From a virus (taxonomy: Duplodnaviria > Heunggongvirae > Uroviricota > Caudoviricetes): 64,000 bases of DNA. Positions 49,265 through 64,000 of this stretch are shown here, one piece after another. Location of the stretch: the IMG/VR virus record IMGVR_UViG_3300044614_000224, positions 14,839-78,838 of that record. The stretch is one strand, 5' to 3'. A program made the position numbers and the translations under genes. The notes under the pieces were generated by a model. It was not told where the DNA came from. It was given only the letters and a program-made list of their open reading frames with translations, and did no database searches. Position 1 is the stretch's first letter, and every line of letters begins with the position of its first letter.

Positions 49265-50325
49265 GTTTTGAAGACTTAAAAAAACAGGTACAGGCAGGCT
49301 TAGAGGGTAGGAATGGTGGTATACCTATGGGTTTTGATAGACTTAATAGATATATTGGTATTAGAAAGTCCATATATACGCTTATAGGTGGTCTCACGGG
49401 TTCTGGTAAGACTAGCTTTATTGATGATGCATATGTGCTTAATCCATTTGATTGGTATATAAGCAAAGCAAATAAGACAAACATCAAGCTAAGGATTATA
49501 TACAGATCCATGGAGAGAAGTAGAACCTATAAGATGGCTAAATGGGTAGGTAGAAGAATATTCATCGATCATGGTGTAACTATCACAGTTAACAAACTGT
49601 TGGGCTGGAATGATAAAATGACCAAGGATGAACATGATCTATTTCTAATGTATGAAGACTATATAGGAGAGATGAGCGAAGTGATTACAATCATTGATGG
49701 TCCAGAGAATGCTGTAGGTATAGCCAAAGAGTTAAAGGCACATGCTTTACAGAATGGAACCATTGAGCAGGTGGATGAATACAATAAGAAGTATTTCCCC
49801 ACAAATGAGAATGAAATCACTATGGTTGTTATCGATCATATAGGCTTATTAAAAACTACACAAGCCCAGCCTACAAAGAAAGATGCTATTGATAAGATGA
49901 GTGATGAGCTCAGATATGCTAGAGACTTCTATGGATATAGTCCTGTTGTTGTTAGTCAGTTCAATAGATCTATTTCTAACATGGCAAGATTAAAGAGTGG
50001 TGATGTAGAACCACAACTAGAAGACTTTGCAGAGAGTTCAAGCACGCAGAATGATGCTGATGTTGTACTAGGATTGTTTGACCCAATGAGATATAAAGTG
50101 GCTGATCCATCAGGCTATGAATTAGATAAGCTGAAGGATAACTTTGGTGCCAAGTATTTTAGATCTCTCAGGCTAATTAAGAATAGCTATGGTGAAGATG
50201 ATGTTAGAATAGGCTTAGGCTTCTTAGGAAGCATTGGTATGTTCAAAGAACTGCCTAGAGTGAAAGACATTACAGAGGCGGATTACACAGCAGTGGTGAA
50301 TAAATCATTTTTCCTAAACAAATAA
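49261..50325 (+). CDS. DnaB-family (RecA-fold) replicative helicase, C-terminal domain only (354 aa)
   Basis: Walker A (GGLTGSGKTSF), Walker B (MVVIDHIGLL), H3-like SQFNRS. No N-terminal DnaB domain. Confidence 0.55.
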   Translation: MSFEDLKKQVQAGLEGRNGGIPMGFDRLNRYIGIRKSIYTLIGGLTGSGKTSFIDDAYVLNPFDWYISKANKTNIKLRIIYRSMERSRTYKMAKWVGRRIFIDHGVTITVNKLLGWNDKMTKDEHDLFLMYEDYIGEMSEVITIIDGPENAVGIAKELKAHALQNGTIEQVDEYNKKYFPTNENEITMVVIDHIGLLKTTQAQPTKKDAIDKMSDELRYARDFYGYSPVVVSQFNRSISNMARLKSGDVEPQLEDFAESSSTQNDADVVLGLFDPMRYKVADPSGYELDKLKDNFGAKYFRSLRLIKNSYGEDDVRIGLGFLGSIGMFKELPRVKDITEADYTAVVNKSFFLNK

Positions 50326-50327
50326 AC

Positions 50328-50528
50328 ATGAGTATAAAAACAAACGTATATAACACGCTACCAAGTAAAAAAGATCATTGGTGGCAGATTGTAGTATTGC
50401 CTACAGTTAGTATTATGAACAACATACAAAAATATGATCCATACGTGGCTGTCAATTTTGAATGGTTATTTTGGTCATTTACTACAATATTAAGCTATGG
50501 CAAAAAAGGAAATCTCTCTACGAGATAA
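50328..50528 (+). CDS. small hypothetical protein (66 aa); overlaps the start of the next gene
   Basis: ORF track only. Confidence 0.3.
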   Translation: MSIKTNVYNTLPSKKDHWWQIVVLPTVSIMNNIQKYDPYVAVNFEWLFWSFTTILSYGKKGNLSTR

Positions 50529-51585
50529 GAGGCAACAGGAGTTTGCTGAGGTGTTCCTAAAACATGGAGAGTTTGGTATTCTAAACTTATGTCCTAGATT
50601 TGGGAAGATCTATACAACTATCAATATATTAGAGAAACTAGACAAAGATATCAACATCCTGATAGCCTATCCAGATCTTAAGATTAAGGAGGCTTGGGAA
50701 GCTGATTTCAAGACTAGAAAATACAAGAATCCTCATATAACGTACACTACGCACCTATCTATTAAAAAGCACACAGGAGGTGTATTTGACCTAGTAATAC
50801 TAGATGAGATACATTTGTTGTCAGAAGCACAAATAGAGGCTGTAAAAGAGCTAAAATGCATAAGTGTGCTTGGTCTTACAGGAACATTAGCTAGTAGTAC
50901 AGAAAGGACCCTCAATGAGGAGCTTGGACTGAATGTATTAGCTACCTATCCAATAGAACAAGCTATTGCAGAAGGAGTTATTACAGACTATGAAATCACT
51001 GTGATAAAGGTTCCTTTGGATGATAAGCGTATTAACGATTATAAAGGGAAGAAGCGTACAGAGAAGAAACAATTTGATAGCTATGCCTGGGTGATTGACC
51101 AGCTAGAAAGACAAGGAAAAGCAACAATGTTCCTACGTCTAGCTAGAATGAGAATCATACAGAACAGTGTGGCTAAAATGGAGAAGACAAGAGAAATCTT
51201 AGCTAAATATAAGCAAGATAGGATCTTGGTATTTTGTGGTGTTACTAAAATAGCAGACACACTTGGTATTCCTTCCTATCACAGTAAATCTACAGAGAAA
51301 GAAATCTTTACAGATTTTGCTGCAGGTAAAGGGAATCATTTGGCTGTTGTTAAGATAGGTAACACAGGTGTAACTTACAAACCACTTAACAAGGTGATTA
51401 TCAATTACTTCGATAGTAATGCAGAAAACCTTGCTCAGAAGATTAATAGATGTATGGCTATGGAATATAACACTCCAGACAAGAAAGCCCATATATACAT
51501 CATATCTTCTAATGAAGAAGTGGAATTAAAATGGCTCAAGAAGGCTCTTGAGTTCTTTGACAAATCAAAAATTAAATACTTATGA
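50497..51585 (+). CDS. SF2 DExH-box helicase (362 aa)
   Basis: Motif I-like CPRFGKIYT, motif II LVILDEIHLL (DEIH), motif III-like GLTGTLASS. Confidence 0.5.
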   Translation: MAKKEISLRDKRQQEFAEVFLKHGEFGILNLCPRFGKIYTTINILEKLDKDINILIAYPDLKIKEAWEADFKTRKYKNPHITYTTHLSIKKHTGGVFDLVILDEIHLLSEAQIEAVKELKCISVLGLTGTLASSTERTLNEELGLNVLATYPIEQAIAEGVITDYEITVIKVPLDDKRINDYKGKKRTEKKQFDSYAWVIDQLERQGKATMFLRLARMRIIQNSVAKMEKTREILAKYKQDRILVFCGVTKIADTLGIPSYHSKSTEKEIFTDFAAGKGNHLAVVKIGNTGVTYKPLNKVIINYFDSNAENLAQKINRCMAMEYNTPDKKAHIYIISSNEEVELKWLKKALEFFDKSKIKYL

Positions 51586-51794
51586 TGTTAGAATTATTAG
51601 AAGAAATCACTCCAGGTAGTGGTACAATGTATGTAGTTAGAAATGATGGTTCAGCTGTTAAATGGTTTGCCCACAAAGCTGATGCAGATAAATATTATGA
51701 AGAGATTATTGCTAATCCAAACCTACTAAAACCTCAAAAAAATATTTTGAAATCTCAGGAAATTACCTTATCTTTGGAGGAAACAAATAACTAA
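51582..51794 (+). CDS. hypothetical protein (70 aa)
   Basis: ORF. Confidence 0.4.
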   Translation: MMLELLEEITPGSGTMYVVRNDGSAVKWFAHKADADKYYEEIIANPNLLKPQKNILKSQEITLSLEETNN

Positions 51795-51803
51795 ATATTA
51801 AAC

Positions 51804-52475
51804 ATGGCAAGCAAATTAATTGGTATTGTTGGTCCAACTGGTACAGGTAAATCAACATCTATCAAACACTTAGATCCAAAGGAAACGTACATCATCAATG
51901 TTGCTAAAAAGGAACTACCTTTTAAAGGAGCAGAGAAGCTGTACAATTCAGAAAACAAGAATTACAAAGAGGTAGATGATGCAATTGAAATCACTCGATT
52001 GTTAAAGACTATCTCTGAGAAAGCACCTCACATCAAGAACATCATCATTGAAGACTCTAATTACATTATGGGATTCAATATGATAGCAAAAGCTACAGAA
52101 ACTGGCTTTACTAAGTTTACACTTATGGCTAGAGATATGGTAGAGCTATTTAGAGAAGCAAGAAGATTGCGTGATGATTTAAAAGTGTTCTATTTCACAC
52201 ACCCAGAAACTATTGAAGATGGTGGTGAGATTATAGGATACAAAATCAAAACTGCAGGTAAATTGATTGATAATCAGATTGTCCTTGAAGGTTTACTAAC
52301 TGTGTGTCTATATACACATGTAGAAGATAGCAAGGATGGTTCTGCTAATTATCAGTTCTTAACAAATCGCTTTAGAAAGTATCCAGCTAAGAGCCCAGAT
52401 GGTATGTTTGCAGATATTAAAATCCCAAACAACTTACAGCTTGTAGTAGACACAATTGACGAATATTATAAATAA
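51804..52475 (+). CDS. P-loop ATPase, possibly a Sak4-like recombination ATPase (223 aa)
   Basis: Walker A (IVGPTGTGKSTS), Walker B-like (NIIIEDS). Its size and position directly upstream of an SSB-like gene fit the Sak4+SSB arrangement. Confidence 0.5.
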   Translation: MASKLIGIVGPTGTGKSTSIKHLDPKETYIINVAKKELPFKGAEKLYNSENKNYKEVDDAIEITRLLKTISEKAPHIKNIIIEDSNYIMGFNMIAKATETGFTKFTLMARDMVELFREARRLRDDLKVFYFTHPETIEDGGEIIGYKIKTAGKLIDNQIVLEGLLTVCLYTHVEDSKDGSANYQFLTNRFRKYPAKSPDGMFADIKIPNNLQLVVDTIDEYYK

Positions 52476-52494
52476 CAATTAAAACTAGAAAAAC

Positions 52495-53367
52495 ATGTCA
52501 GGAATCGGTGGAAACAAAAGACAGCAATCAAGTGGAGAATCTAACTTCTCGAAGAAGGTAGGTTTATTTGAAGCTAATGTGATTGCAATTAACCCAACAA
52601 TTGAAGAGTTCAAGGACAAATTAGGTATTGAACTTAAAGAAGACAGCAAAGCAGCTGATTACTTAGGAATGAGTCAAGATGGTAACAAAACACTACGTGT
52701 GGACATCTGGCTTGAAGAAGTTAAGAGTAAGGATAAGTTTAAAGCTGTATTCTTCCTTGAGAACAAAGAAAGAGAAAACAAAGATGGTAGCAAGAAACAA
52801 TATATCAACTCTGTTGGTAGCTGTTCTTGGGCTGATGATGAAAACAATCTTCCTAAATGGTTTACAGAACGTGAAGTTCGTGTAGCTAATGTAGGTGAAG
52901 AAGATCTTTATAATTTCATGCGTACATGGTTAGGTAATTTAGATTATCGTGATGCTGAAACCACTCTACAATTAGACTGGAGCAAGCTTATGAAAGGTAA
53001 TGTTAAAGACCTAAGAGACCAAATCAATGGTGAATGGTGTACAAATGTCGTTGCTTTAGCTACAGTGAAGACTGTTGAGAAAGATGGTGATATTAAGGAA
53101 TATCAAGGTATATATAACAAGGGATTCCTACCTGCTTATACATTGAAACAATTTAGACTGGTAGATTTCAGTAGCTCTGCAATCCTTAAAGGATTACGTG
53201 AGAAGAAGTCTAAAGATCTAAAACCTCATGAGCGTTTTGTATTAAACGTTACAGGTGAGTATGGATGTAAAGAGTTCTATACATTCAAAGACTTAGCAGA
53301 GTATAACGCAGATGATAATCTTGTAGCCTCGGATAGAGTGCTAGAAGAAGATGATAGCGACTTTTAA
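52495..53367 (+). CDS. candidate single-stranded DNA-binding protein with an acidic C-terminal tail ending in Phe (290 aa)
   Basis: The C-terminus ...VLEEDDSDF resembles the acidic tail of T7 gp2.5 and bacterial SSBs ending in Phe. Genomic context is between an ATPase and the primase. Confidence 0.35.
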   Translation: MSGIGGNKRQQSSGESNFSKKVGLFEANVIAINPTIEEFKDKLGIELKEDSKAADYLGMSQDGNKTLRVDIWLEEVKSKDKFKAVFFLENKERENKDGSKKQYINSVGSCSWADDENNLPKWFTEREVRVANVGEEDLYNFMRTWLGNLDYRDAETTLQLDWSKLMKGNVKDLRDQINGEWCTNVVALATVKTVEKDGDIKEYQGIYNKGFLPAYTLKQFRLVDFSSSAILKGLREKKSKDLKPHERFVLNVTGEYGCKEFYTFKDLAEYNADDNLVASDRVLEEDDSDF

Positions 53368-53368
53368 T

Positions 53369-53422
53369 TTTGTCCCCTCCCCTCTATAAAAGCCCCTCAT
53401 CTGTAAAAAGGTGGGGGGTTTT
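53369..53422 (+). terminator. C-rich / G-rich hairpin between the SSB-like and primase genes, possible weak terminator
   Basis: cccctcccctc ... ggtggggggtttt; imperfect stem followed by a T-run. Confidence 0.25.
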
Positions 53423-53434
53423 AACTTTATATAT

Positions 53435-54433
53435 ATGATAAACGGAAAAAGAAAAACAAAGCTTACACCAGAGTCCGTACTAGACAAGATAACTGATTAT
53501 GATATATTTAGGTTCTATATGCCTGATAAGACATGGAAGCTCAACAGAGTGACCTTCTCTCCATTTAGAAATGAGAACAATCCTTCCTTTGTAATAGGGA
53601 ATAAAAGGGGCTTTATATCATTTATTGACTTTGCTGATACCAGTAAAAGAGGTGATTGTTTTGAGTTTGTTAAGCTCCTTCACAATCTATCTAGTATGAA
53701 TGATGTGTTAAAGCTTATAGACAGAGATTTTGGACTAGGAATAGTTACCAAGGGTACAGAGGAATACAAGAGAATTACAGCACAGTATAAACAACCTGAA
53801 GCTGTTAAGAGGTATTCTCTCATCCAGGTGGTAACAAAGAAGTTTACACAAGAGGAGTTAGCCTATTGGAATCAATATCATATAGATATAGAGGATCTAA
53901 AGAGTAATAACGTCTATTCTGTTAAGAAGGTGTATTTGAACAAGAGTTTGTTCTATACCAACGATCAGGAAATGAGGTTTGGTTATTTCTATGATGGACA
54001 TTGGAAGATTTATACACCGTTTGGAGATAAGAAGACTAAATGGTTACCTAATAATGTTCCTATCACCGCTATGGATGGTAAAGAGGACATAGCTAATTGC
54101 AAGGTGGCATTCATCAATAAGAGTAAGAAAGATTATATGGTTATGAAGAAGATATTTCCATGTAGCTGTGCTGTACAGAATGAAGGTGTTGGTTGTTTCT
54201 CTCCAGAGAACTTAGAATATCTTAAAGCTAATTCTGACAGACAAATCCTCAGCTTTGATAGCGATGTTACAGGTGTAACTAACTCACAACAGATTACCAA
54301 GCTATTTGATTTTGATTATGCTAATGTTCCTCGTAAGTATCTAACAGAAGGTATAAAGGACTGGGCTGATCTAGCAAAGGCTCATGGTATGGAAGCAATA
54401 GAATCTTATTTAAAACAAAAACACATTTTATGA
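53435..54433 (+). CDS. DnaG-like primase with a degenerate, zinc-ligand-free zinc-binding domain plus TOPRIM (about 332 aa)
   Basis: SPFRNENNPSF...FISFIDFADTSKRGD aligns to the DnaG zinc-binding domain CPFHNEKTPSF...FYHCFGCG with all four ligands replaced. TOPRIM-like NEG and FDSDVTG. The track ORF starts at GTG 53411; the ATG at 53435 is the likely start. Confidence 0.45.
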   Translation: MINGKRKTKLTPESVLDKITDYDIFRFYMPDKTWKLNRVTFSPFRNENNPSFVIGNKRGFISFIDFADTSKRGDCFEFVKLLHNLSSMNDVLKLIDRDFGLGIVTKGTEEYKRITAQYKQPEAVKRYSLIQVVTKKFTQEELAYWNQYHIDIEDLKSNNVYSVKKVYLNKSLFYTNDQEMRFGYFYDGHWKIYTPFGDKKTKWLPNNVPITAMDGKEDIANCKVAFINKSKKDYMVMKKIFPCSCAVQNEGVGCFSPENLEYLKANSDRQILSFDSDVTGVTNSQQITKLFDFDYANVPRKYLTEGIKDWADLAKAHGMEAIESYLKQKHIL

Positions 54434-54592
54434 CACTGCATGATTTAAAAGAAGCTATTAGAAACGAAATAGAATTTCTTGAGACAATGGAAGGAGATGA
54501 AATAGAGTGTATTGGTATTGAGAACCTAGAAGGTATATTATCACAATATTTTAACAAAGAAATCAAACTAACAGAAGAGTATGAAGACTGAG
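54431..54592 (+). CDS. possible 54-aa acidic ORF below the cutoff
   Basis: ATG overlapping the primase stop (ATGA); MTLHDLKEAIRNEIEFLETMEGDEIECIGIENLEGILSQYFNKEIKLTEEYED. Confidence 0.3.
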
Positions 54593-55351
54593 AACTACAA
54601 CACAACAAAAGAATTGATTCTTGCAGCAGATATTCCTGCACAGACAAGAACTTACAAACCAGTTAGCCACGGTCAATTGATTGATCTTACAATGGATGGT
54701 ATTCAGAAGGCTGGATTTGTATTAGATAAAGAAACATACACAGCTAGTACAAATGGTCAGATTGCTAATGGTAGATTTACTATCAAGAACGTAATGGATA
54801 GTGAGATGCAATTAGAGATTGGCTGGCAGAATAGCTACAACAAGCAACTTACATTAAAGTTTGCCCTAGGTACACGCATTATGATTTGTCAGAATGGTTG
54901 TGTATCAGGTGATTATGGTGCATTTAAGAAAAAACACGTTGGTGAAATACAATCATTTACACCAAATGCTATTAGTGAATACATCAAGGCTGCAGGAGAA
55001 AGCTTTAGAACTATTCAGTTCCAGAGAGATCAAATGAAGCAAGTGGAAGTTACTAAGCGTACAAAAGCTGAATTGATTGGTAGAATGATGATTGAAGAGC
55101 AGTTTATTACATCTACACAATTAAACATCATTACCAGAGAATTAACCAGCCCTACACATGATTATGGTGCACCTGATAGCTTATGGGAGTTGTACAACTA
55201 CACAACATTTGCTATGAAGGAAACACATCCTGCAAACTGGATGAGTAGTCACATTAAAGCACATTCATTCTTTGTAGATGCTTCAGGACTTCATACACCA
55301 AAAGCTGAGGTGCCTGCTATTATACAATTAGAACAATTAGAATTATTTTAA
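54581..55351 (+). CDS. hypothetical protein (256 aa)
   Basis: ORF. Confidence 0.5.
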   Translation: MKTENYNTTKELILAADIPAQTRTYKPVSHGQLIDLTMDGIQKAGFVLDKETYTASTNGQIANGRFTIKNVMDSEMQLEIGWQNSYNKQLTLKFALGTRIMICQNGCVSGDYGAFKKKHVGEIQSFTPNAISEYIKAAGESFRTIQFQRDQMKQVEVTKRTKAELIGRMMIEEQFITSTQLNIITRELTSPTHDYGAPDSLWELYNYTTFAMKETHPANWMSSHIKAHSFFVDASGLHTPKAEVPAIIQLEQLELF

Positions 55352-55352
55352 C

Positions 55353-56069
55353 ATGAATTGGAATAAGTTTGAATCACAATTTCACCCATCATGGCATAGA
55401 CTTATGCAACCCTTTATTGAAAGTGAAGCTTGTGACAACATCTATAAATTCCTAAAATCAGAGAGTCAGAGGGGCAAGAAGATTGCTCCTCTTTCTCCTA
55501 ATGTTTATAGATGCTTTTTAGAGACTTCACTAGATGACCTAAAGATGGTTATGGTGGGTATGTGTCCCTACCACACATTAAAGAATGGTAGTCCTATAGC
55601 AGAAGGTTTACTAATGGGCTGTTCTACAACAGGTATATTACAACCTTCTCTAGCAAAGTTCTATGATGGAATAGAAAAAGAGTTGTATCAGGGATTAAAC
55701 CTCACTATACTAAAGAATCCAGATGTTACCTATTTGGCTAAACAAGGAGTTCTTATGTATAACGCAGCTTTAACCACTGAAATCAACAAAGCAGGTTCAC
55801 ATATCGACATCTGGGAACCTTTTACTAAGTATCTATTTGAAGAGGTGCTATCCTATACAGGAGTGCCTATTCTGTTCTTAGGGAAAGATGCTTCCAAGTA
55901 TGAAAGATATGTACCACCGTTTAGTTGGTCTTTCACTGTAAGTCATCCAGCCAGTGCTTCTTACAAGCAAACTGATTGGGATACAGAAGGTGTATTCACC
56001 AAGCTAAACAAGATACTAAAAGAAAACAATAATACAGAAATCGATTGGCTAGAAAAAGTGCCATTCTAA
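55353..56069 (+). CDS. family-1 uracil-DNA glycosylase homologue with non-canonical active-site residues (238 aa)
   Basis: Aligns along its whole length to E. coli/human UNG: SWHRLM, KQGVLMYNAALT, VSHPASASY, IDWLEKVP. The GQDPYH motif reads GMCPYH, so the catalytic Asp is Cys. HPSPLS reads HPASAS, so the intercalating Leu is Ala. Confidence 0.75.
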   Translation: MNWNKFESQFHPSWHRLMQPFIESEACDNIYKFLKSESQRGKKIAPLSPNVYRCFLETSLDDLKMVMVGMCPYHTLKNGSPIAEGLLMGCSTTGILQPSLAKFYDGIEKELYQGLNLTILKNPDVTYLAKQGVLMYNAALTTEINKAGSHIDIWEPFTKYLFEEVLSYTGVPILFLGKDASKYERYVPPFSWSFTVSHPASASYKQTDWDTEGVFTKLNKILKENNNTEIDWLEKVPF

Positions 56070-56079
56070 AACTAAAATT

Positions 56080-56379
56080 ATGGAAGAATTACAAGTGTAT
56101 GTACAAAACAATAGAGATGGAGAGTTAGATTATGATTATGATCTTATAATGGGAGGTGCTGTAGACACATTGAAATACTCAAATCATCCAGATTGGCAGG
56201 TTGGAGGAGAAACAGCATTAAAGTTAACAGACGATGGTAATGGTATAAAGTTCAAATTTCCTGATAAGAAGGTAATAGAACTAGAATATAATGAAGCACG
56301 TGAAATGCTTGTTATGTTAATGATGCACATGGATGAAAAAATAGAAATCAGAAAATCAGAACTTATTAAAACTATTTAA
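56080..56379 (+). CDS. hypothetical protein (99 aa)
   Basis: ORF. Confidence 0.45.
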   Translation: MEELQVYVQNNRDGELDYDYDLIMGGAVDTLKYSNHPDWQVGGETALKLTDDGNGIKFKFPDKKVIELEYNEAREMLVMLMMHMDEKIEIRKSELIKTI

Positions 56380-56381
56380 TT

Positions 56382-56747
56382 ATGTACAAAGTTAGATTTG
56401 GAGAAACAATTGAAAAGGGAGACCTCATTGCTGTTGCTAATGGTAATGATTTCTCATTGGGTATTTATTATGGAAGAGGAATAGGAGGAACTGTTCAGTA
56501 TTACATGCCTAATAGCGTTAGATATGCTATGGAACGTTTTAATGTAAGAATGGCAGAATTAACTGCTGAAGGACAACCTACAGAACCTCTTAAGTTAAAT
56601 AACTTTTGGAAATGTTATGTTAACACACCAAGAGACACACGAATTATGAAATTAAACAGAGAAAACATTACAAGTCCAAAAGACATAGAAGAAGTTATGA
56701 TAGCAAAAGAAGCACTAAAAAACTTTAACATCGACGTAAAATACTAA
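56382..56747 (+). CDS. hypothetical protein (121 aa)
   Basis: ORF. Confidence 0.45.
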   Translation: MYKVRFGETIEKGDLIAVANGNDFSLGIYYGRGIGGTVQYYMPNSVRYAMERFNVRMAELTAEGQPTEPLKLNNFWKCYVNTPRDTRIMKLNRENITSPKDIEEVMIAKEALKNFNIDVKY

Positions 56748-56749
56748 TC

Positions 56750-59065
56750 ATGATACTAGAAAAACAGACAGAAGCAACTATCCTACAAGAAGGAGAATCA
56801 CAAGAATCAATTGGAATGTCATTAGACCTGGACTCAGCTCAGGTGCTAATGCAAATGTTAAGTAAGAATTTATATTCAGATGCAATAGGTTCCACTATTC
56901 GTGAGTGTGCCTCTAATGCATTAGACAGTCACAGAAGAGCAGGTATTGATAAACCAATCATCGTTAGCCTCAATAGGAATAACCATGATAACTATGAATT
57001 CTCTGTAGAGGATTTTGGTATTGGTCTAGATGCAGATGATGTAGTTAATATCATCAGCAAATATGGTAAGAGTACAAAGCGTAATAGTAATACAGAATTA
57101 GGCATGATGGGTCTTGGTTTTAAGGCCCCACTAGCATACACATCTACCTTCTATTTTACTGCAAGGAAAAATGGAATGGAAAGAAAATACATGATGTATG
57201 AGGGAGAAGAAGTGAATTCAATCGATTTACTTCATGAGACTCCCACAGATCAGCCAAACGGTGTTAAGATAACAATACCAGTTAACTATTACGATAGACA
57301 TGATTTTGTACGTAAGATTAAAGAGCAACTAGCTTATTTTGAGAACGTGTATTTCAATGTACTAGATGGTGAGGTGAGCAATGATTTCACTATCCATAGA
57401 TCAGAACACTATCAAGCTTCTAGCTTATCCAGAGATAGTTGGTTACACATTTGTTTAGATAATGTGTATTATCCATTGGATTTCACTAGATTAGGTATTG
57501 ATAGAATAAGCATTCCTGTAGGTTTAAGATTTAGTCTTACAGATGGTTTATTCCCTACACCAAACAGAGAATCCATTAGATATACCAAGGAAGCAAAAGA
57601 TATCATCCTAGCTAAGATTAGTAAGATGGTTGATCATTTTATTACCAAATACAATGAAACTGTTGCTGATACTGATGATTTCATGGCTGTATTGAGATAC
57701 CATGCTACAAACAGAAGATATGTAGATGTTCCTGGTAAGAATACTAACTTTGATCTCACTGATGTAGTTAAACATGGTACTGTTCTAATCGCTTCTCCTA
57801 AGGTAAGCAGCCTAAAGAAGCTTGACTTACAAAAACTTGTCAGAAACAAGGAATACATCCTTGGTGAGTATGATAAGAAGTTTGAGCTTTACAATGGTAG
57901 AATGTCTCAGGTGAAGAGCTATTGGAGAAGTGGTGTTGATGTTATAAACAGAAACGATGAACCACACTATTTCTATTCTGAGAAGATTAGTGGTGCTATG
58001 AAGGATTATATTAAGAGTATAGCTCCAAAGAGCAGACATGCATATTTCATTAGAAAGGTGAAGACATTTAAACTGGGTAGTCTTACAAAGATGAATGATT
58101 ATGATACTTATATGAAACTTCTTAGCTTAGATGACTATCCAAGAGATCAATGGAGAGAGCTTATTGCAGAGTTTCAAGCTGTGTTAGCTTCTCTTACAAA
58201 GACATTCATCAACCTTGATGAGATAGTAATACCACAAGCTTTCCTAGATTCTAGGAAGAAGCAAAAGGGAATCACTGTTTCTGTTGGTGGAACAAAAGTG
58301 AGACGTATTAAGTTGGAAGGTGAGGTGATTGGTAGATATGCTGTAGAGCTAGAGAGATATGTAGATGGTAAGAATTCTAAACTGGTTAGCAAGATTTATA
58401 GTCTCGCTGAAATGCATAAGTATAACAAGCTTGTTATTTATGGTTCCCAGGCAGATATCTCTACTATGGACAAACTATATGCATCAGTTAATAAGAATAA
58501 GGTGGAGCTAGCTGTATTCTCTGAGAGAGAACTTAAGACACTATCTACTATTAACGTACACAATCTAATCCCTTTAAGCAAGTTTATGGAAGGTAAAAAC
58601 AAACCATTCAAGAGAATTGTAACAGCCTATCTAATCCAAAAGTTACACAACAACTTCAGTAGATCGTTTATTAGAAAAGAGAAAATTGGTCTCATCTCTA
58701 CAGATTTGTATGAAAAGATGAAAAGACTAAATGATTACAAGATTGAACATCACTGTGGTGGTAATGACACAATCTATAATTCTATGCTAGAGGTAGCCCA
58801 AACACACAACTTATTTGATATGGAGATATATCATGAGTATGTAGAAGTGAAGAACCTTCTAGAAAGATTACCATTCATCGAAGCTATGTCTGATAAAATA
58901 CAGAGCTATGATAATGATAACTCTCCAATAATCAGTGCATTCCGTGATCTATTCAAGTATCATGGACATAGAATTGACTGGAAACACTACAATATTCGTA
59001 TCAATGAAGAGGTTGTAGAGGAGTTAACAGAGAATTCTGTTGAAGAGTTAGTAGAGAATATTTAA
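56750..59065 (+). CDS. Hsp90/HtpG-like GHKL (Bergerat-fold) ATPase with a long uncharacterised C-terminal region (771 aa)
   Basis: N-box ExxxNAxD (RECASNALD), preceded by an Hsp90-like helix (QVLMQMLSKNLYSDAIGSTIRE, compare [20 protein letters not shown]). G1 box VEDFGIGL. GxSxK (YGKSTK). G2 box GMMGLGFKA. Confidence 0.7.
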   Translation: MILEKQTEATILQEGESQESIGMSLDLDSAQVLMQMLSKNLYSDAIGSTIRECASNALDSHRRAGIDKPIIVSLNRNNHDNYEFSVEDFGIGLDADDVVNIISKYGKSTKRNSNTELGMMGLGFKAPLAYTSTFYFTARKNGMERKYMMYEGEEVNSIDLLHETPTDQPNGVKITIPVNYYDRHDFVRKIKEQLAYFENVYFNVLDGEVSNDFTIHRSEHYQASSLSRDSWLHICLDNVYYPLDFTRLGIDRISIPVGLRFSLTDGLFPTPNRESIRYTKEAKDIILAKISKMVDHFITKYNETVADTDDFMAVLRYHATNRRYVDVPGKNTNFDLTDVVKHGTVLIASPKVSSLKKLDLQKLVRNKEYILGEYDKKFELYNGRMSQVKSYWRSGVDVINRNDEPHYFYSEKISGAMKDYIKSIAPKSRHAYFIRKVKTFKLGSLTKMNDYDTYMKLLSLDDYPRDQWRELIAEFQAVLASLTKTFINLDEIVIPQAFLDSRKKQKGITVSVGGTKVRRIKLEGEVIGRYAVELERYVDGKNSKLVSKIYSLAEMHKYNKLVIYGSQADISTMDKLYASVNKNKVELAVFSERELKTLSTINVHNLIPLSKFMEGKNKPFKRIVTAYLIQKLHNNFSRSFIRKEKIGLISTDLYEKMKRLNDYKIEHHCGGNDTIYNSMLEVAQTHNLFDMEIYHEYVEVKNLLERLPFIEAMSDKIQSYDNDNSPIISAFRDLFKYHGHRIDWKHYNIRINEEVVEELTENSVEELVENI

Positions 59066-59207
59066 ACAAAATGCAATTTATTGCACATATATTTCCAATT
59101 GTTTAACGTTTAATACATATTAGGCACAAAAGATTAAACAATTAGAAATATATGTGTAATATGTTGCACTTTTAACTAGATTTATTTTAAAACAAAAACA
59201 AAACAAA

Positions 59208-60776
59208 ATGGGACTATTCAGTTTAAGCTGGTTCAAGAGCCAGAAACAAAAGCAGTTAGATGAATTACAACATGAGATTGAAGTTAAAAAATTAGAGAAG
59301 ACACTAGAAAGACTAGATGAAAAAGAGAAACCTTCTACTTACACAATAGGGATTAGTAATCCATGGGTACCTACTACAGCAAGTGTTGTTAAACCTTATT
59401 CTAACATTAAAATTGTGAATGATGTGCTTACAGTGGTACTTAACGATGGTTCTATCATCACTAAGTCTAAAGCTACAGCAGAAGACTTCAACAATGCTAG
59501 AGAGTGTAAGACAGAAGCTTGTTTATTGGCTCTTGTAGGTTCTCCAGATATACTAAAAGAGAAGCAGGAAGCACAGGCTAAATATGAGAAAGCTAAGGCT
59601 ATTCAGAAAGGTGCTGAGTATCTAGCTAAGTTTGATGATTTTGAGATGAAAGACGGTAGTCTTTATATCAAGGGAATCAACAGAAGCATCCCACCTTTGA
59701 TGGTAGATGAGTTCTTAAAGATTATTGGTAATTACAGTTACAACTCTATGGACAATGTAACAGATAGAGAAATAGATGAGGTGAATGAACTTATACAAGA
59801 AGACGAAGAGTATCAATCTCTTAAGCGTTTCTTTATGTGGTGTTGCTTAAATCCTAGAGCTGAGGTGGCTGACAAGCTATATAACTTCTTGAAGAAGAAT
59901 AGCTTCCGCATCACCAAGCAGGGATTCTTTGTAGCATTACGTAACGTTGTAACATTACATGGATCTACAGAACTGGTACAATTCATCAGCAATGCTTACA
60001 ACAAGACTAAAGCTGTATGGAAGAAGAACCCATCTGACTATTTAGTGTTCTTAAAGGACGGTGAATACAGAATGGTTGCTAAGTCTATATTTGAAGAACT
60101 AGAGCCATGCACATATTGTGATGAGAATGGAAATGTTCCTTGTGAGGATGATGACTATGATGATAGCTGTGAATGTCCAGAATGTTATGGTTCTGGTACA
60201 GTGTACAAACACTGTGAAGAGCAATATGGTGAATTGATTGGTAACTTAACAGAACTATATCTTGATTTGCCTAATAGAGCAGAGAATAGATTTACAGATG
60301 CTCACACAAAGACATTTGACATCAGAATTGGTAGACCAGTGAACATGCCTATGGAGCAGTGTAGATGGAATACTGATGATTGTGGTGCTGAAGGCTTACA
60401 CTTCACATCTGATGAGATTCATTATGTAGGTTGTGGTGATACATCTGTGCTTGTACTTATCAATCCAATGAAGGTTGTAGGTATTGGTGAGTCTAAAGGT
60501 AGATGCTATGAGTATTTACCAATCATGACTGTTCCTCGTGAAGAAGCAACAGAAATCTTACATGATCTAGACTTTGATACAATGGAGCTTGATGAGAGCT
60601 ATGCAATTCGCGAATTGGAAAATTTAGGTACAAAAGCTAGAGAAGGTTTTATTGCAGAGGCTAAGAAGTATGAGTTCAATCTCCCTGCTTTATCTGCTGT
60701 AGAAGTACTTAAGATTGTTAAGAGTCTTGATGAAATAAGACAAGAAATCTCTAAGAGAATCGTAAATATTGATTAA
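59208..60776 (+). CDS. coiled-coil plus Cys-rich zinc-ribbon protein (522 aa)
   Basis: N-terminal heptad-like region, then CTYCDENGNVPC...CECPEC...HC. Preceded by a 140-bp AT-rich gap containing a palindrome. Confidence 0.55.
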   Translation: MGLFSLSWFKSQKQKQLDELQHEIEVKKLEKTLERLDEKEKPSTYTIGISNPWVPTTASVVKPYSNIKIVNDVLTVVLNDGSIITKSKATAEDFNNARECKTEACLLALVGSPDILKEKQEAQAKYEKAKAIQKGAEYLAKFDDFEMKDGSLYIKGINRSIPPLMVDEFLKIIGNYSYNSMDNVTDREIDEVNELIQEDEEYQSLKRFFMWCCLNPRAEVADKLYNFLKKNSFRITKQGFFVALRNVVTLHGSTELVQFISNAYNKTKAVWKKNPSDYLVFLKDGEYRMVAKSIFEELEPCTYCDENGNVPCEDDDYDDSCECPECYGSGTVYKHCEEQYGELIGNLTELYLDLPNRAENRFTDAHTKTFDIRIGRPVNMPMEQCRWNTDDCGAEGLHFTSDEIHYVGCGDTSVLVLINPMKVVGIGESKGRCYEYLPIMTVPREEATEILHDLDFDTMELDESYAIRELENLGTKAREGFIAEAKKYEFNLPALSAVEVLKIVKSLDEIRQEISKRIVNID

Positions 60777-60784
60777 CTTTGTAG

Positions 60785-60808
60785 GACCAGGGGCTAAAAT
60801 CCCTGGTC
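60785..60808 (+). terminator. GC-rich hairpin between gene 59208-60776 and the HNH gene
   Basis: 8-bp stem gaccaggg / ccctggtc, loop gctaaaat, then ttatatt (weak U tract). Confidence 0.3.
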
Positions 60809-60821
60809 TTATATTAAGCTT

Positions 60822-61223
60822 ATGAAAAAGAACGCAACAAAGAGAAGAGCGAAGATACCTAGAGCTAAAAGTCCAAAGATGAGAAACGCTGGTACTATGA
60901 CAGAATCAGCTTTCTGGAGCTTCATTAGAAGTGCTTTGAGACAGAAGTCTAGATGGTGGAAACCTATTACAGAATGCAAGATGAAAGCTCGTAGGGCATA
61001 TAAAGGTCCCAGTAAGAGACAAAAGTTTGAATATCAATGCAATAGCTGTAAAGCATGGTTTCCAGAGAAACAAATTAACGTAGATCACATTAAGCCTGCA
61101 GGTAGTTTAAACTGTAAAGAGGACTTAGCAGGATTTGTAGAGCGTCTGTTCTGTGAACTAGATAATCTACAGGTGTTATGTGAATCATGTCATGATGTAA
61201 AAACTAAATTAGAGAAAAAATGA
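60822..61223 (+). CDS. HNH endonuclease, likely a homing endonuclease (133 aa)
   Basis: VDHIKP...DNLQVLCESCH gives the H-N-H motif with flanking Cys pairs (CNSC...CESC). Confidence 0.7.
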   Translation: MKKNATKRRAKIPRAKSPKMRNAGTMTESAFWSFIRSALRQKSRWWKPITECKMKARRAYKGPSKRQKFEYQCNSCKAWFPEKQINVDHIKPAGSLNCKEDLAGFVERLFCELDNLQVLCESCHDVKTKLEKK

Positions 61224-61489
61224 GTGACTTAGAGATAACAATCAATAAAGAACCGTCGTTCACAGAGATATGGCATGAGGGATATATTACGTATAACTCA
61301 GAGAAGCACTATTTCTGGTTAATCCACCCACAGAATGTAGATGATAAAGGAGACCCTTATGAACTAGAGGTTAGATGGTTCTTTCAGAGGGTACCAAGAG
61401 AAGTGAGGGCAATGCACCCTTACATTATAGAATCTTTTAAACAAACACTAAATGATACAAGGACCAAACAGAACAGAAGCAGCTTATAG
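61220..61489 (+). CDS. hypothetical protein (89 aa); overlaps the next ORF
   Basis: ORF with ATGA overlap to the HNH gene. Confidence 0.3.
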   Translation: MSDLEITINKEPSFTEIWHEGYITYNSEKHYFWLIHPQNVDDKGDPYELEVRWFFQRVPREVRAMHPYIIESFKQTLNDTRTKQNRSSL

Positions 61490-62495
61490 GGCTGTAGCAA
61501 TGGACAGTTCTTCAAGCTTGAAGGACTTCTCTGTGGACAGAAAGAAATACCACAAGAAGTATGTCCTAAATGAGAAGGTGGAGGATAAAGACACAGCAGC
61601 ATCAGTTATTGGTAGACTGGTAGAGACACAACTTATGGAACCAGAACTCTTTGATGAGAGGTTCTATATGTCAACTGTTATTAGTGCACCAACCAATCTT
61701 ATGCTAGAATTTGTAGAAGCATTGTATAGACATACAGCTGCAGCTACAAATGAAGATGGTGTAGTTACAAGAGAGATGGAAGACATCATGAAAGATGCAT
61801 ATGTAGATTCTGGATTCAAGATTAAGATTGATGCTGTTCTTGCTAAATTCATAGGATCTGATGCAGAAATCTATTACAAAGAAATCCGTGAGGTGAGAAG
61901 CAAGGGCCTCACCGTTGTTACCACACAGGATATAACTAATGCAGAGAAGATTGTAGAAGAGCTTAAGACTAATGATTTTACAGCACCAATTGTAAACCTA
62001 GTTAATAGTGCACGCTACAATGTATATAATCAGCTCCAGGTGGAAGGATATGTTGTATTTGGACACATGTTCAAGAGCATGATGGATAAGGTGATTGTTG
62101 ACCATACAGAGAAGACAATCCAGGTGTACGATCTTAAATGTACGTGGTCTGTAGAAAACTTCTATGAAGAGTATTATCTCTATCGTAGAGCTTATATACA
62201 GGGCTATTTATATTTCTATGCAGCAAAGCACATGTTTGATGAGCTAGTGGCTGTAGGATATGAGATATTACCTCCTAGATTTATTGTATGTGACAGTACA
62301 AACTATGCATGTCCATTAGTATTTACCATGGATGATAAGTCATTCCAAGATGCTGAACAAGGATTTGAACACAAGGGTAGAAAGTATCCTGGTGTTAAGA
62401 GTCTTATCACTGACCTTAAATGGGCTATCAAGAATGATAAGTGGAACATTTCAAGAGAGAATTATTTAAATAACGGGTTAGTAAAATTAGGTTAA
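61452..62495 (+). CDS. RecB/Cas4-like PD-(D/E)xK nuclease candidate (347 aa)
   Basis: KVIVD...VYDLK gives D...DxK; it is followed by a QxxxY motif (IQGYLY). The start may instead be the ATG at 61500 (MDSSSS). Confidence 0.4.
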   Translation: MIQGPNRTEAAYRAVAMDSSSSLKDFSVDRKKYHKKYVLNEKVEDKDTAASVIGRLVETQLMEPELFDERFYMSTVISAPTNLMLEFVEALYRHTAAATNEDGVVTREMEDIMKDAYVDSGFKIKIDAVLAKFIGSDAEIYYKEIREVRSKGLTVVTTQDITNAEKIVEELKTNDFTAPIVNLVNSARYNVYNQLQVEGYVVFGHMFKSMMDKVIVDHTEKTIQVYDLKCTWSVENFYEEYYLYRRAYIQGYLYFYAAKHMFDELVAVGYEILPPRFIVCDSTNYACPLVFTMDDKSFQDAEQGFEHKGRKYPGVKSLITDLKWAIKNDKWNISRENYLNNGLVKLG

Positions 62496-63046
62496 TGGAG
62501 ACAACAAAGACAATCACCACTATATTCATTGTACCAATATTTAGTATTGGTAAAGAAAAGCTAACAAATAATGGGTTTGTCAATGGTTTTATAAAAGATA
62601 GCAGAAGAGATGTACAATACAAGGATTCTGTCTATCTTTTATTTAAGCCTGAAGACCTAGATAAGTTTAAAGTGTTTCTAGACAGTGAGTATGAACGTAC
62701 AAAGCAAATCATTGATGATTATGATTATGAAGAGGGGTATGTTGTTGTAGTTTATCAAATCAATCCAAGGCTATTGCCTGATATAGAATTGGTAAAACAG
62801 GGCAAATATTCCCAAACTTCTAGCAAATTCCAGCAGATTTTTCCTAAAATTGTCAAAATAAAGAAAAATGGCTTCCAAAAAGATGAACTATCTCTTCAAT
62901 ATCGAGTGTTTAATAAGACAGAAGATTTGAAGCAGTTCTGGGAAGATAAGTTTGATGTAGTATTTGATGATGATATGGAAGTTTGGTCTGGTTTTTCAGA
63001 AGGATATGAAACTCTTGATCTAGATAAAATTAAAGAACATGTATAA
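62495..63046 (+). CDS. hypothetical protein (183 aa)
   Basis: ORF. Confidence 0.45.
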   Translation: METTKTITTIFIVPIFSIGKEKLTNNGFVNGFIKDSRRDVQYKDSVYLLFKPEDLDKFKVFLDSEYERTKQIIDDYDYEEGYVVVVYQINPRLLPDIELVKQGKYSQTSSKFQQIFPKIVKIKKNGFQKDELSLQYRVFNKTEDLKQFWEDKFDVVFDDDMEVWSGFSEGYETLDLDKIKEHV

Positions 63047-63251
63047 CAAAGAAGTGTTAGAAGAACTAGTAAAGAAGTTTGGTATAGAAAATACCATTCT
63101 GTTCTGTAAAATGGAAGCTCTCAAGAATTCTATTCTATACGAGGATTGTATTAAGAATGATCAAAATACAACAGATTGTGTAGAGTTTGATTTTGAGAGG
63201 GACTGGTGGCAGAACAAATATGAAGAACTAAATAAAACAAAAGCGTTATGA
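63039..63251 (+). CDS. hypothetical protein (70 aa)
   Basis: ORF. Confidence 0.4.
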   Translation: MYNKEVLEELVKKFGIENTILFCKMEALKNSILYEDCIKNDQNTTDCVEFDFERDWWQNKYEELNKTKAL

Positions 63252-63628
63252 CAGGATTAGAACTATTAGAAAAGTATGACAAAGCAGCTATTGTTATCAA
63301 GCAATACTATTTAAATGCTATGTTAGAGTCTCTAAAAGATGAGGAACTTCCAGAGAACTTCAAAGAATACGCTCGTCAAACAACTATTGATAATGATAAG
63401 ATAGGCAAGCTCATAGATGTACAGCCTAGAGGATTGTTTGATGTGTTTGATAACAATAAAGTGTACATAGAGATGTTAGTAGATTACAAAAAACTTGATG
63501 CAACATTTGCTTATACTGTTATAGATGATGATACAATGTATTCAAACCCATCTCATTATAATAATAGAAAAGAAGCTGAGAAAAAAGCTGTTGAACAAGC
63601 ATTTGAAATCTTAAACAATAAGTTATGA
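63248..63628 (+). CDS. hypothetical protein (126 aa)
   Basis: ORF. Confidence 0.45.
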   Translation: MTGLELLEKYDKAAIVIKQYYLNAMLESLKDEELPENFKEYARQTTIDNDKIGKLIDVQPRGLFDVFDNNKVYIEMLVDYKKLDATFAYTVIDDDTMYSNPSHYNNRKEAEKKAVEQAFEILNNKL

Positions 63629-63876
63629 CAGATAGTATAGTTGACCAAGTTGTCCGTAAGTATGGAATTAGAAGTGCTGTAGGCATTGATAAGTATGGCA
63701 CCACACTAGAAACTAACAATAAGGATAACTTTCTCAAGCACCTACAGGAAGAACTAATGGATGCAACGCTCTACATAGAGAAGCTCATGACCCTTGAAAA
63801 GGAAATAACTAAATTAGTTAGAGACCATTCTAATGATGCAGAACTTGGTTACAAAATAAGAAATTTAGTTAGATAG
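63625..63876 (+). CDS. hypothetical protein (83 aa)
   Basis: ORF. Confidence 0.4.
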   Translation: MTDSIVDQVVRKYGIRSAVGIDKYGTTLETNNKDNFLKHLQEELMDATLYIEKLMTLEKEITKLVRDHSNDAELGYKIRNLVR

Positions 63877-63904
63877 AATTTTTGAAATGTCTTGGTTTAT
63901 AAAA

Positions 63905-63937
63905 AGGGCGGTTGTACATTTGCAACCCCCTTTTTTT
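63905..63937 (+). terminator. rho-independent terminator
   Basis: Stem gggcggttg / caaccccc (one C-C mismatch), loop tacatttg, then TTTTTTT. Confidence 0.55.
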
Positions 63938-63960
63938 AACCAATTAAAACAAAACAAAAC

Positions 63961-64000
63961 ATGGATTTAGGATTAGATGCGTTAAGTAAAATAACGATTT
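63961..64000 (+). CDS. start of a further plus-strand gene, cut by the window end
   Basis: ATG MDLGLDALSKITI... directly after the terminator and an A-rich leader. Confidence 0.25.
   Translation, partial: MDLGLDALSKITI

Follow-up and report, generated by a model that had tools for sequence, protein, structure and literature searches.

The stretch of DNA analysed here, hereafter the window, comprises 64,000 nucleotides of a Caudoviricetes virus (positions 14,839 to 78,838 of IMG/VR record IMGVR_UViG_3300044614_000224), and the locus of interest occupies positions 56750 to 62495 of its + strand. The first gene (56750..59065) encodes a 771-aa GHKL ATPase and is separated by an AT-rich gap of 142 bp (59066-59207) from a second gene (59208..60776) encoding a Cys-rich protein of 522 aa; a GC-rich stem-loop (60782..60811) lies just 3' of the second stop codon, and genes for an HNH endonuclease of 133 aa (60822..61223) and for a PD-(D/E)xK-type nuclease of 347 aa (61452..62495) follow. 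An original prediction, made from the sequence alone, had seen in these genes an Hsp90/MORC-type ATPase wired to nucleases in a conflict system. The results described below indicate that the first two genes are almost certainly rIIA and rIIB of the phage, and that the locus is a classic rII module, widespread and already recognized, and ordinary for a large virulent phage.

In profile searches, the top match of the first protein is PHROG 612, 'RIIA lysis inhibitor' (E 8e-57), in which residues 1-722 align with positions 1-711 of a 725-position profile, and six more rIIA PHROGs also match; PHROG 612 is likewise the family of rIIA from phage T4 (E 9e-250). A direct BLASTP comparison with T4 rIIA (NP_049616) covers residues 1-325 with 23 % identity (E 1e-19), and pairs RECASNALD with RELITNMIDA in the N box, DFGIGL with DFGPGM in the G1 box, GMMGLGFK with GGFGLGSK in the G2 box and, further downstream, PNRE with PSRE. 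The Bergerat-fold ATP-binding domain itself spans residues ~42-195 (56873..57334), and the motifs on which it had been proposed from the sequence, ECASNALD, DFGIGL, YGKSTK and GMMGLGF, are all present. Pfam HATPase_c_3 (E 1.8e-6) and HATPase_c (E 6.2e-6) both match residues ~45-148, and E52 and N56 of the N box, D88, G90 and G92 of the G1 box, and G118, G121 and G123 of the G2 box are invariant across 62 relatives. Such an ATPase had been considered unusual in a phage, a view that does not hold, since tblastn with rIIA finds matches in 2579 phage records of GenBank, including 903 from Escherichia phages, and many of the matches are annotated as rIIA, and the rIIA-rIIB locus is also annotated in crAss-like phages.

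Beyond the ATPase domain, rIIA continues with a second domain at residues ~196-305 (57335..57664), which comprises several beta-strands followed by a long helix and carries a conserved P271-x-R273-E274 motif, and with a C-terminal region of ~465 residues (57665..59065), lineage-variable, mixed alpha/beta and then a helical bundle, in which no known domain is recognized and no Pfam domain scores above cut-off. An AlphaFold2 model built on the alignment of the relatives has a mean pLDDT of 78.7, the C-terminal region being modelled with good confidence. When this model was searched with Foldseek, members of the Hsp90 family came out on top (E ~1e-9), and the nearest folds were those of Hsp90, ParE, topo VI-B and MutL. 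The two-domain GHL ATPases align with the model over 186-292 residues, which exceeds the GHKL domain of ~150 residues, and the beta-sheet and long helix of the model at residues ~196-305 are probably a transducer-like second domain. A search of predicted viral structures (BFVD) extended the resemblance over ~790-840 columns to the rIIA proteins of KVP40, of Aeromonas, Streptomyces and Pseudomonas phages and of other phages, with E values ranging for rIIA proteins from 1e-14 to 4e-27, the latter for KVP40. Matches longer or shorter than this range were obtained with the rIIAs of N4-like phages and with the second fragment of the split rIIA of cr116_1, an uncultured crAss-like phage; a further match is the RB43 protein in which rIIA and rIIB are fused, and the closest match of all is an uncharacterized protein of 'Virus NIOZ-UU157' (44 % identity). 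The full-length architecture proposed for rIIA thus rests on predicted structure, the C-terminal half having no sequence-profile match of its own. In agreement with this variability, the C-terminus of rIIA has been described as highly variable, and the protein as a GHKL ATPase in a poorly understood counter-defence system (PMC7824862).

The same comparisons bear on the place of rIIA among the GHL ATPases, namely Hsp90/HtpG/TRAP1, GyrB/ParE, topo VI-B, MutL and MORC. All share with rIIA the Bergerat fold and every catalytic motif, and the second beta/alpha domain that follows the ATPase in these enzymes is probably also present in the window protein. On the other hand, no TOPRIM domain, MutL C-terminal endonuclease domain, CW or coiled-coil MORC module or Hsp90 C-terminal dimerization domain was detected in rIIA. 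The NCBIfam HSP90 model reaches 29.2 bits against a cut-off of 455 and covers residues 33-115 only, and the fold similarity to Hsp90 is best for its N-domain, hence rIIA is not assigned to the Hsp90/HtpG family. One alternative is that the two genes encode a divergent type II topoisomerase or another DNA-topology enzyme, formed by a GHKL subunit and a DNA-cleaving partner. The ATPase domain does match topo VI-B weakly (PDB, E 1.4e-3; NCBIfam, E 6.9e-9, 35 bits against a cut-off of 274), the gene is placed among replication genes, and rIIA of T4 adjoins topoisomerase gene 60. However, Pfam, NCBIfam and PDB sequence searches revealed neither TOPRIM, winged-helix nor GyrA-like domains in either protein, in line with the lack of TOPRIM and winged-helix signatures already remarked from the sequence; structural matches end at ~290 residues or less, far below the matches to rIIA proteins in extent and strength; and the partner is a homologue of rIIB and not of topo VI-A or GyrA. 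We therefore consider a topoisomerase extremely unlikely. The PDB sequence searches returned only weak GHKL matches for rIIA and none for rIIB, and no solved structure of either protein was found in them.

The second protein is an expanded variant of rIIB. It begins with a predicted helix, its rIIB core is interrupted by an insertion, and a helical extension is appended at the C-terminus. Three 'RIIB lysis inhibitor' families, PHROGs 609, 11221 and 36818, are matched by residues ~357-451 (E 1.7e-15, 3.2e-9 and 9.1e-7, respectively), and the first of them is also the family of T4 rIIB (NP_049889; E 6.6e-111). BLASTP against T4 rIIB returns two colinear segments, residues 189-247 on T4 159-217 (E 5e-5) and 362-436 on T4 221-301 (E 1e-6), and hhalign with a family profile of 57 sequences extends the alignment to residues 102-427 on T4 106-288 (probability 95.9 %, E 6.5e-9), a central block of residues 102-247 falling on T4 106-217. 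The two proteins thus share this central block (T4 ~106-217) and a C-terminal core (T4 221-301), the latter located in the window protein at residues ~359-443 (60282..60536), with invariant Cys 385, 392, 409 and 433 and the motif FTDxHTxTFDIRxG…GLHFT. Regarding the families themselves, PHROG 609 is a profile of 1055 positions, of which the first ~310 match rIIA and the last ~300 match rIIB; the matching of rIIA proteins to a family named after RIIB is probably due to fused rIIA-rIIB proteins such as the 1049-aa protein of RB43 (BFVD Q56C47).

Comparison with shorter homologues defines what has been added to rIIB in the window. In the 320-aa rIIB of cr116_1, the blocks matching residues 192-246 and 359-513 of the window protein lie at 95-155 (E 1e-7) and 161-313 (E 1e-12), that is, contiguously, and the hhalign alignment with T4 rIIB leaves the same gap. 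Residues ~248-358 (59949..60281) are an insertion, as judged by sequence alignment, because the flanking blocks are contiguous in both T4 and cr116_1, whose short form lacks it. The insertion contains a conserved beta-rich segment and a putative zinc-finger hairpin with two motifs of CxxCxGxG type, CTYCDENG … CPECYGSG (60108..60191), resembling the DnaJ/Anti-TRAP-type zinc finger. The cysteines concerned, C301, C304, C323 and C326, are kept in 86-91 % of the 57 relatives, while the Pfam Anti-TRAP match is weak and under the cut-off (E 0.0042); these pairs would presumably bind zinc in the manner of a DnaJ-type finger. The helical N-terminus, in which residues 6-38 are modelled with low confidence as one long helix, is likewise absent from T4 rIIB, as is a C-terminal helical extension of ~80 residues, and so is the ~110-residue insertion, the protein measuring 522 aa against 312 aa in T4. 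Of the coiled-coil/zinc-ribbon protein described from the sequence, a predicted N-terminal helix and the Cys pairs are confirmed. When 1.84 billion representative proteins were searched with a profile, 1947 relatives of rIIB were found at E ≤ 1e-3, 204 of them at E ≤ 1e-30; most match as two stretches flanking the insertion, and the long form is therefore common in metagenomes. In one related locus (L042, ~9300-10980) the rIIB frame is broken into an N-terminal ORF of ~190 aa and a C-terminal ORF of 310 aa, which could represent a frameshift, a sequencing error or a genuine split gene.

The association between the two genes was assessed in 80 related IMG/VR loci with rIIA identities of 46-96 %. 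In 77 of them rIIB directly follows rIIA, and the sequence of the remaining three breaks off shortly past rIIA; this count is weak evidence when taken alone, as the whole arm is syntenic among these relatives. The order is also found in T4, where the two genes are adjacent across the record ends, in KVP40, in Rhodococcus phage Trina and in cr116_1, and in RB43 both are fused into a single protein. This recurrence in unrelated phages is a stronger argument than co-occurrence among close relatives, and the ATPase gene and its neighbor are accordingly a conserved two-gene unit, as the original prediction had supposed when it proposed examining their co-conservation. T4 rIIA (725 aa) resembles the window protein (771 aa) in its N-terminal GHKL ATPase with N, G1 and G2 boxes, in the PxRE motif and in its PHROG, whereas its C-terminus cannot be aligned by sequence. 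The locus of cr116_1 (Steigviridae; MT774389.1, 19781-29239) provides a second reference. As in the window, rIIA and then rIIB lie inside the replication module, with genes for a uracil-DNA glycosylase (UDG), an HNH protein and a PD-(D/E)XK exonuclease nearby, and the annotation given there for the rII genes is 'protector from prophage-induced early lysis'. Homology to the window is detected for the rIIB core (E 1e-12), the UDG (E 3e-17) and the exonuclease (E 3e-9). In contrast to the intact gene of the window, rIIA of cr116_1 is split by an intron-type endonuclease gene into a 125-aa 'rIIA-like protein' and a remainder of 565 aa, and the UDG gene follows rIIB instead of preceding rIIA.

The unit is closed on its 3' side by the GC-rich stem-loop at 60782..60811, with 11-nt arms that are 91 % complementary and a minimum free energy (MFE) of -21.6 kcal/mol, at the place where a GC hairpin had been noticed in the sequence. 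At the same position, just past the end of rIIB, 50 of 53 distinct relatives have a strong stem-loop although the stem sequences are very different, and the element resembles a conserved terminator or processing signal that would end the rII unit ahead of the HNH gene; a simple terminator scan did not call the element in the window, which is without a T run. In the more distant of the clades a TATTTCGTATATTTG-like motif that includes TAnnTTTG lies in the loop, and because this resembles the -7 promoter box of Bacteroidota, the stem-loops of those clades may be combined terminator and promoter elements. A scan for sigma-70 promoters was uninformative (39 sites against 39.9 expected).

The gap between rIIA and rIIB has a different character. 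It holds a long imperfect palindrome (59068..59172), a hairpin of 105 nt with 44-nt arms (59068-59111 and 59129-59172) that are 84 % complementary, an MFE of -37.5 kcal/mol and a z of -8.0, which is the longest inverted repeat of the window. An AT-rich gap with a palindromic, operator-like site had been placed before the ATPase gene; both gap and palindrome exist, but they lie between the two genes, the ORF upstream of rIIA stopping at 56747, three bases before the rIIA start. Nor is the palindrome a conserved operator or a conserved part of the module; it is strain-variable. The spacing between the genes ranges in the relatives from 6 to 355 bp, and the palindrome is missing where the gap measures only 6-20 bp. 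Even among the closest relatives (92-96 % rIIA identity) two, L009 and L012, carry it flipped with respect to the window (each at ~9320-9420), within flanking genes that are ~90-96 % identical, such that the reverse-complement alignment is near-perfect over ~91 nt and the direct alignment has many mismatches in the central ~40 nt; two others, L008 and L010, have a different long hairpin at the same position. In more distant relatives rIIA is followed by a GC hairpin, and the gap of some contains small additional ORFs. The site is accordingly a small inversion or replacement hot spot, and attenuation, RNA processing or a recombination scar are possible roles or origins; we may also hypothesize that a palindrome of alternating orientation tunes the expression of rIIB relative to rIIA. 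Rfam recognizes no family in the palindrome and returns only sub-threshold matches to plant-miRNA-like hairpins. A multi-copy mobile element was considered and rejected, the exact 23-nt core occurring in IMG/VR contigs only at the same site in two relatives. Among the extra ORFs, one of 34-43 aa in six loci (L027, L029, L036, L037, L042 and L076) encodes a Cys-rich, acidic-tailed peptide (e.g. MAKISDCCGAYSEYADDIDLCPACMEHCEFRDDEEEEE) and is followed by a GC hairpin, and one of ~76-80 aa lies between rIIA and rIIB in four others (L016-L018 and L024). Between the palindrome and the rIIB start codon lies an A-rich leader without a Shine-Dalgarno sequence (59173..59207, …TTTATTTTAAAACAAAAACAAAACAAA-ATG), and leaders of this kind (AAAACAAAAACAAAACAAA-ATG) precede rIIB in nearly all relatives.

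Leaders of this type would fit translation initiation as it occurs in Bacteroidota, and together with a GC content of 35 % and a crAss-like terminase they point to a host in that phylum. The terminase of the window is nearest to that of Leptolyngbya phage Lbo-JY46 (40 %), followed by those of Cellulophaga phages phi4:1 and phi17:2 (32 %) and of gut crAss-like phages (27-29 %), and close relatives of the window are carried by metagenomic contigs of 110-120 kb. Based on these affinities and contig sizes, the source is an uncultured phage of ~115 kb related to crAss-like phages; a megablast search of GenBank phages with window positions 50000-64000 found no closely similar sequenced phage. Every gene from ~39.5 kb through the end of the window lies on the + strand, and the products of this arm include a DNA polymerase, two helicases, a Sak4-like annealing protein (51804-52475), a primase, a DUF932 protein and the UDG (55353-56069; NCBIfam, E 8.5e-34), while the terminase, portal and major head protein are encoded in the opposite arm. 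The rII genes had been thought to mark the end of the replication arm, yet in relatives the same strand runs on through more genes to a RecA-like gene. The interval between UDG and rIIA (56080-56747) is filled by two ORFs of 99 and 121 aa to which no function is assigned, the latter abutting the rIIA start; this slot is variable, the 121-aa ORF being detected in 36 of the 80 related loci and the 99-aa ORF in seven.

The two nucleases downstream of the stem-loop raise the question of whether the rII genes belong to a larger system. The HNH endonuclease is readily confirmed (PHROG 1985, E 4.7e-25; Pfam HNH, E 1.4e-4). The second protein had been described as a RecB/Cas4-like nuclease; it is a PD-(D/E)xK-type nuclease, but the Cas4/RecB identity found no support, and its similarities, all weak, are to RecE/exonuclease VIII and to a crAss exonuclease. 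It matches PHROG 412 (E 9.5e-12), NCBIfam PRK09709 at positions 618-796 of 877 (E 2.7e-6, 25.8 bits, the curated cut-off being 1269) and, by BLASTP, the cr116_1 'PD-(D/E)XK superfamily exonuclease', and it has no Pfam or PDB sequence match. Given this RecE-like similarity and the Sak4-like protein upstream in the same arm, it is probably a recombination exonuclease. The HNH protein of the relatives is mostly 70-85 % identical to that of the window where rIIA is 46-57 % identical, a conservation unusual for a phage HNH protein, which suggests a fixed core function and not a homing endonuclease.

In the four-gene view, the ATPase, taken to be MORC/Hsp90-like, would detect or remodel DNA together with its Cys-rich partner, leaving the HNH and RecB-like nucleases to attack host DNA or competing phages as effectors. 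All four genes lie on one strand, and most of the 80 related loci have them together, the HNH gene being present in 67 and the nuclease gene in 65, and nucleases are also encoded within a few kb of rII in T4 (denB), in KVP40 (a GIY-YIG homing endonuclease) and in cr116_1. However, synteny along the whole arm means that such co-occurrence says little, and in nearly all the relatives compared a terminator-like hairpin stands between rIIB and the HNH gene. Moreover, variable inserts are found between the HNH gene and the exonuclease gene, the HNH protein is unrelated to the one encoded near rII in cr116_1, and the exonuclease resembles recombination nucleases of RecE type. In KVP40 and Trina the pair occurs without such nuclease partners, Trina having tRNAs after rIIB. 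Among eight proteins searched with PADLOC, only one gave a match, a marginal one to TmtA (E 0.009, 11.5 bits), so that the locus is not assigned to a MORC-type or any other defense system. A conflict system comprising all four genes is therefore very unlikely, and the HNH and RecE-like proteins look like independent replication or recombination genes, neighbors of the rII pair and not its partners. The broader notion of a role for the unit in conflict between phage and host, or between phages, is nevertheless sustained by the rII homology itself.

What is known of rII function comes from coliphages. T4 lacking rIIA or rIIB cannot grow on hosts carrying lambda RexAB, and knockdown of divergent rII pairs (<40 % identity) in T4, MM02, EdH4, SUSP1 and N4 has no effect in the absence of Rex and lowers plating on RexAB hosts (PMC11879866, PMC8594841). 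RIIB alone is toxic to E. coli and is sensed by a bacterial gasdermin/CARD defense system (PMC10312443). By homology, the two genes very probably constitute the rIIA-rIIB pair of this phage, acting as an early counter-defense module, a judgment that leans on the identity of the pair; the counter-defense role in this particular phage, taken separately, is a rather better than even prospect. The pair would act early, along with the replication genes, to neutralize a Rex-type abortive-infection system of the host or of resident prophages, which, left unopposed, would dissipate the membrane potential and abort the infection. rIIA may function as an ATP-driven dimerizing clamp like other GHL ATPases, with rIIB as a partner or adaptor presumably in physical contact with it, perhaps binding proteins through its zinc finger, and both genes are probably co-transcribed with the replication genes up to the terminator-like hairpin.

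Several observations weigh against this interpretation. The similarity of rIIA to its T4 counterpart is low, the 23 % identity being confined in BLASTP to the first ~330 residues, and residues 301-771 (57650-59065), searched alone, match no PHROG at E 1e-5. Residues 1-105 of T4 rIIB have no counterpart in the window protein according to hhalign, but as they are also unmatched in cr116_1, the T4-type N-terminal ~100 residues may not be family-defining. The AlphaFold2 model of rIIB is poor (pLDDT 62, and <50 in the conserved core) and unfit for use, and the extra modules of the protein may mean that its partners or targets differ from those of T4. One published view, moreover, holds that rIIB is a specific transcription factor with a negative regulatory role (PMC7824862). 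This last point leads to another explanation, in which the genes are genuine rIIA and rIIB but would serve mainly to adjust transcription of the phage, the timing of lysis or membrane energetics to the physiology of the host. The toxicity of RIIB alone would fit such a role, the lack of a defect of rII knockdowns on Rex-less hosts leaves room for a different primary role (PMC11879866), and the pair is strictly conserved in a large family of environmental phages, which points to a benefit that is general and not tied to a particular host. In contrast, sensitivity to RexAB is the only reproducible phenotype of rII mutants, observed in five diverse coliphages (PMC11879866), and the window rIIB lacks the N-terminal region of T4 rIIB, which looks helix-turn-helix-like on reading the T4 sequence. 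A mainly regulatory role is thus regarded as unlikely. Returning to counter-defense, a more specific idea is that the enlarged rIIB and the Hsp90-like rIIA form an ATP-driven, chaperone-like machine that inactivates a particular abortive-infection protein of the host or of a prophage. We consider it quite doubtful that either this or the tuning of rIIB expression by the palindrome applies; if the former were true, it would point to a client-binding mechanism for rII proteins generally, with the zinc finger as client-binding element.

The main value of these results lies in a correction, as the supposed ATPase-nuclease conflict system is a classic rII module. The fold comparison put forward with the original prediction, here performed with Foldseek on the AlphaFold2 model, places the protein nearest to Hsp90-type GHL ATPases with matches to rIIA over roughly the full length, and the complete type II topoisomerase envisaged as a contrary outcome was not found, neither a TOPRIM domain nor a GyrA-like partner being detected. 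Among the public records seen, close relatives carry no rII annotation and are named 'hypothetical protein' or after a generic ATPase domain, and the rII pair is a constant component of the replication arm across a large family of environmental phages of ~110-120 kb related to crAss-like phages. The good-confidence model of rIIA places its ATPase nearest to Hsp90/GHL enzymes and suggests a transducer-like domain bearing the PxRE motif shared with T4, and a long form of rIIB exists that bears a putative zinc finger of DnaJ type. This locus alone does not make the question of the rII mechanism more testable; as that mechanism is unsolved after 70 years, divergent variants such as those described here could help to define the conserved core of the system.

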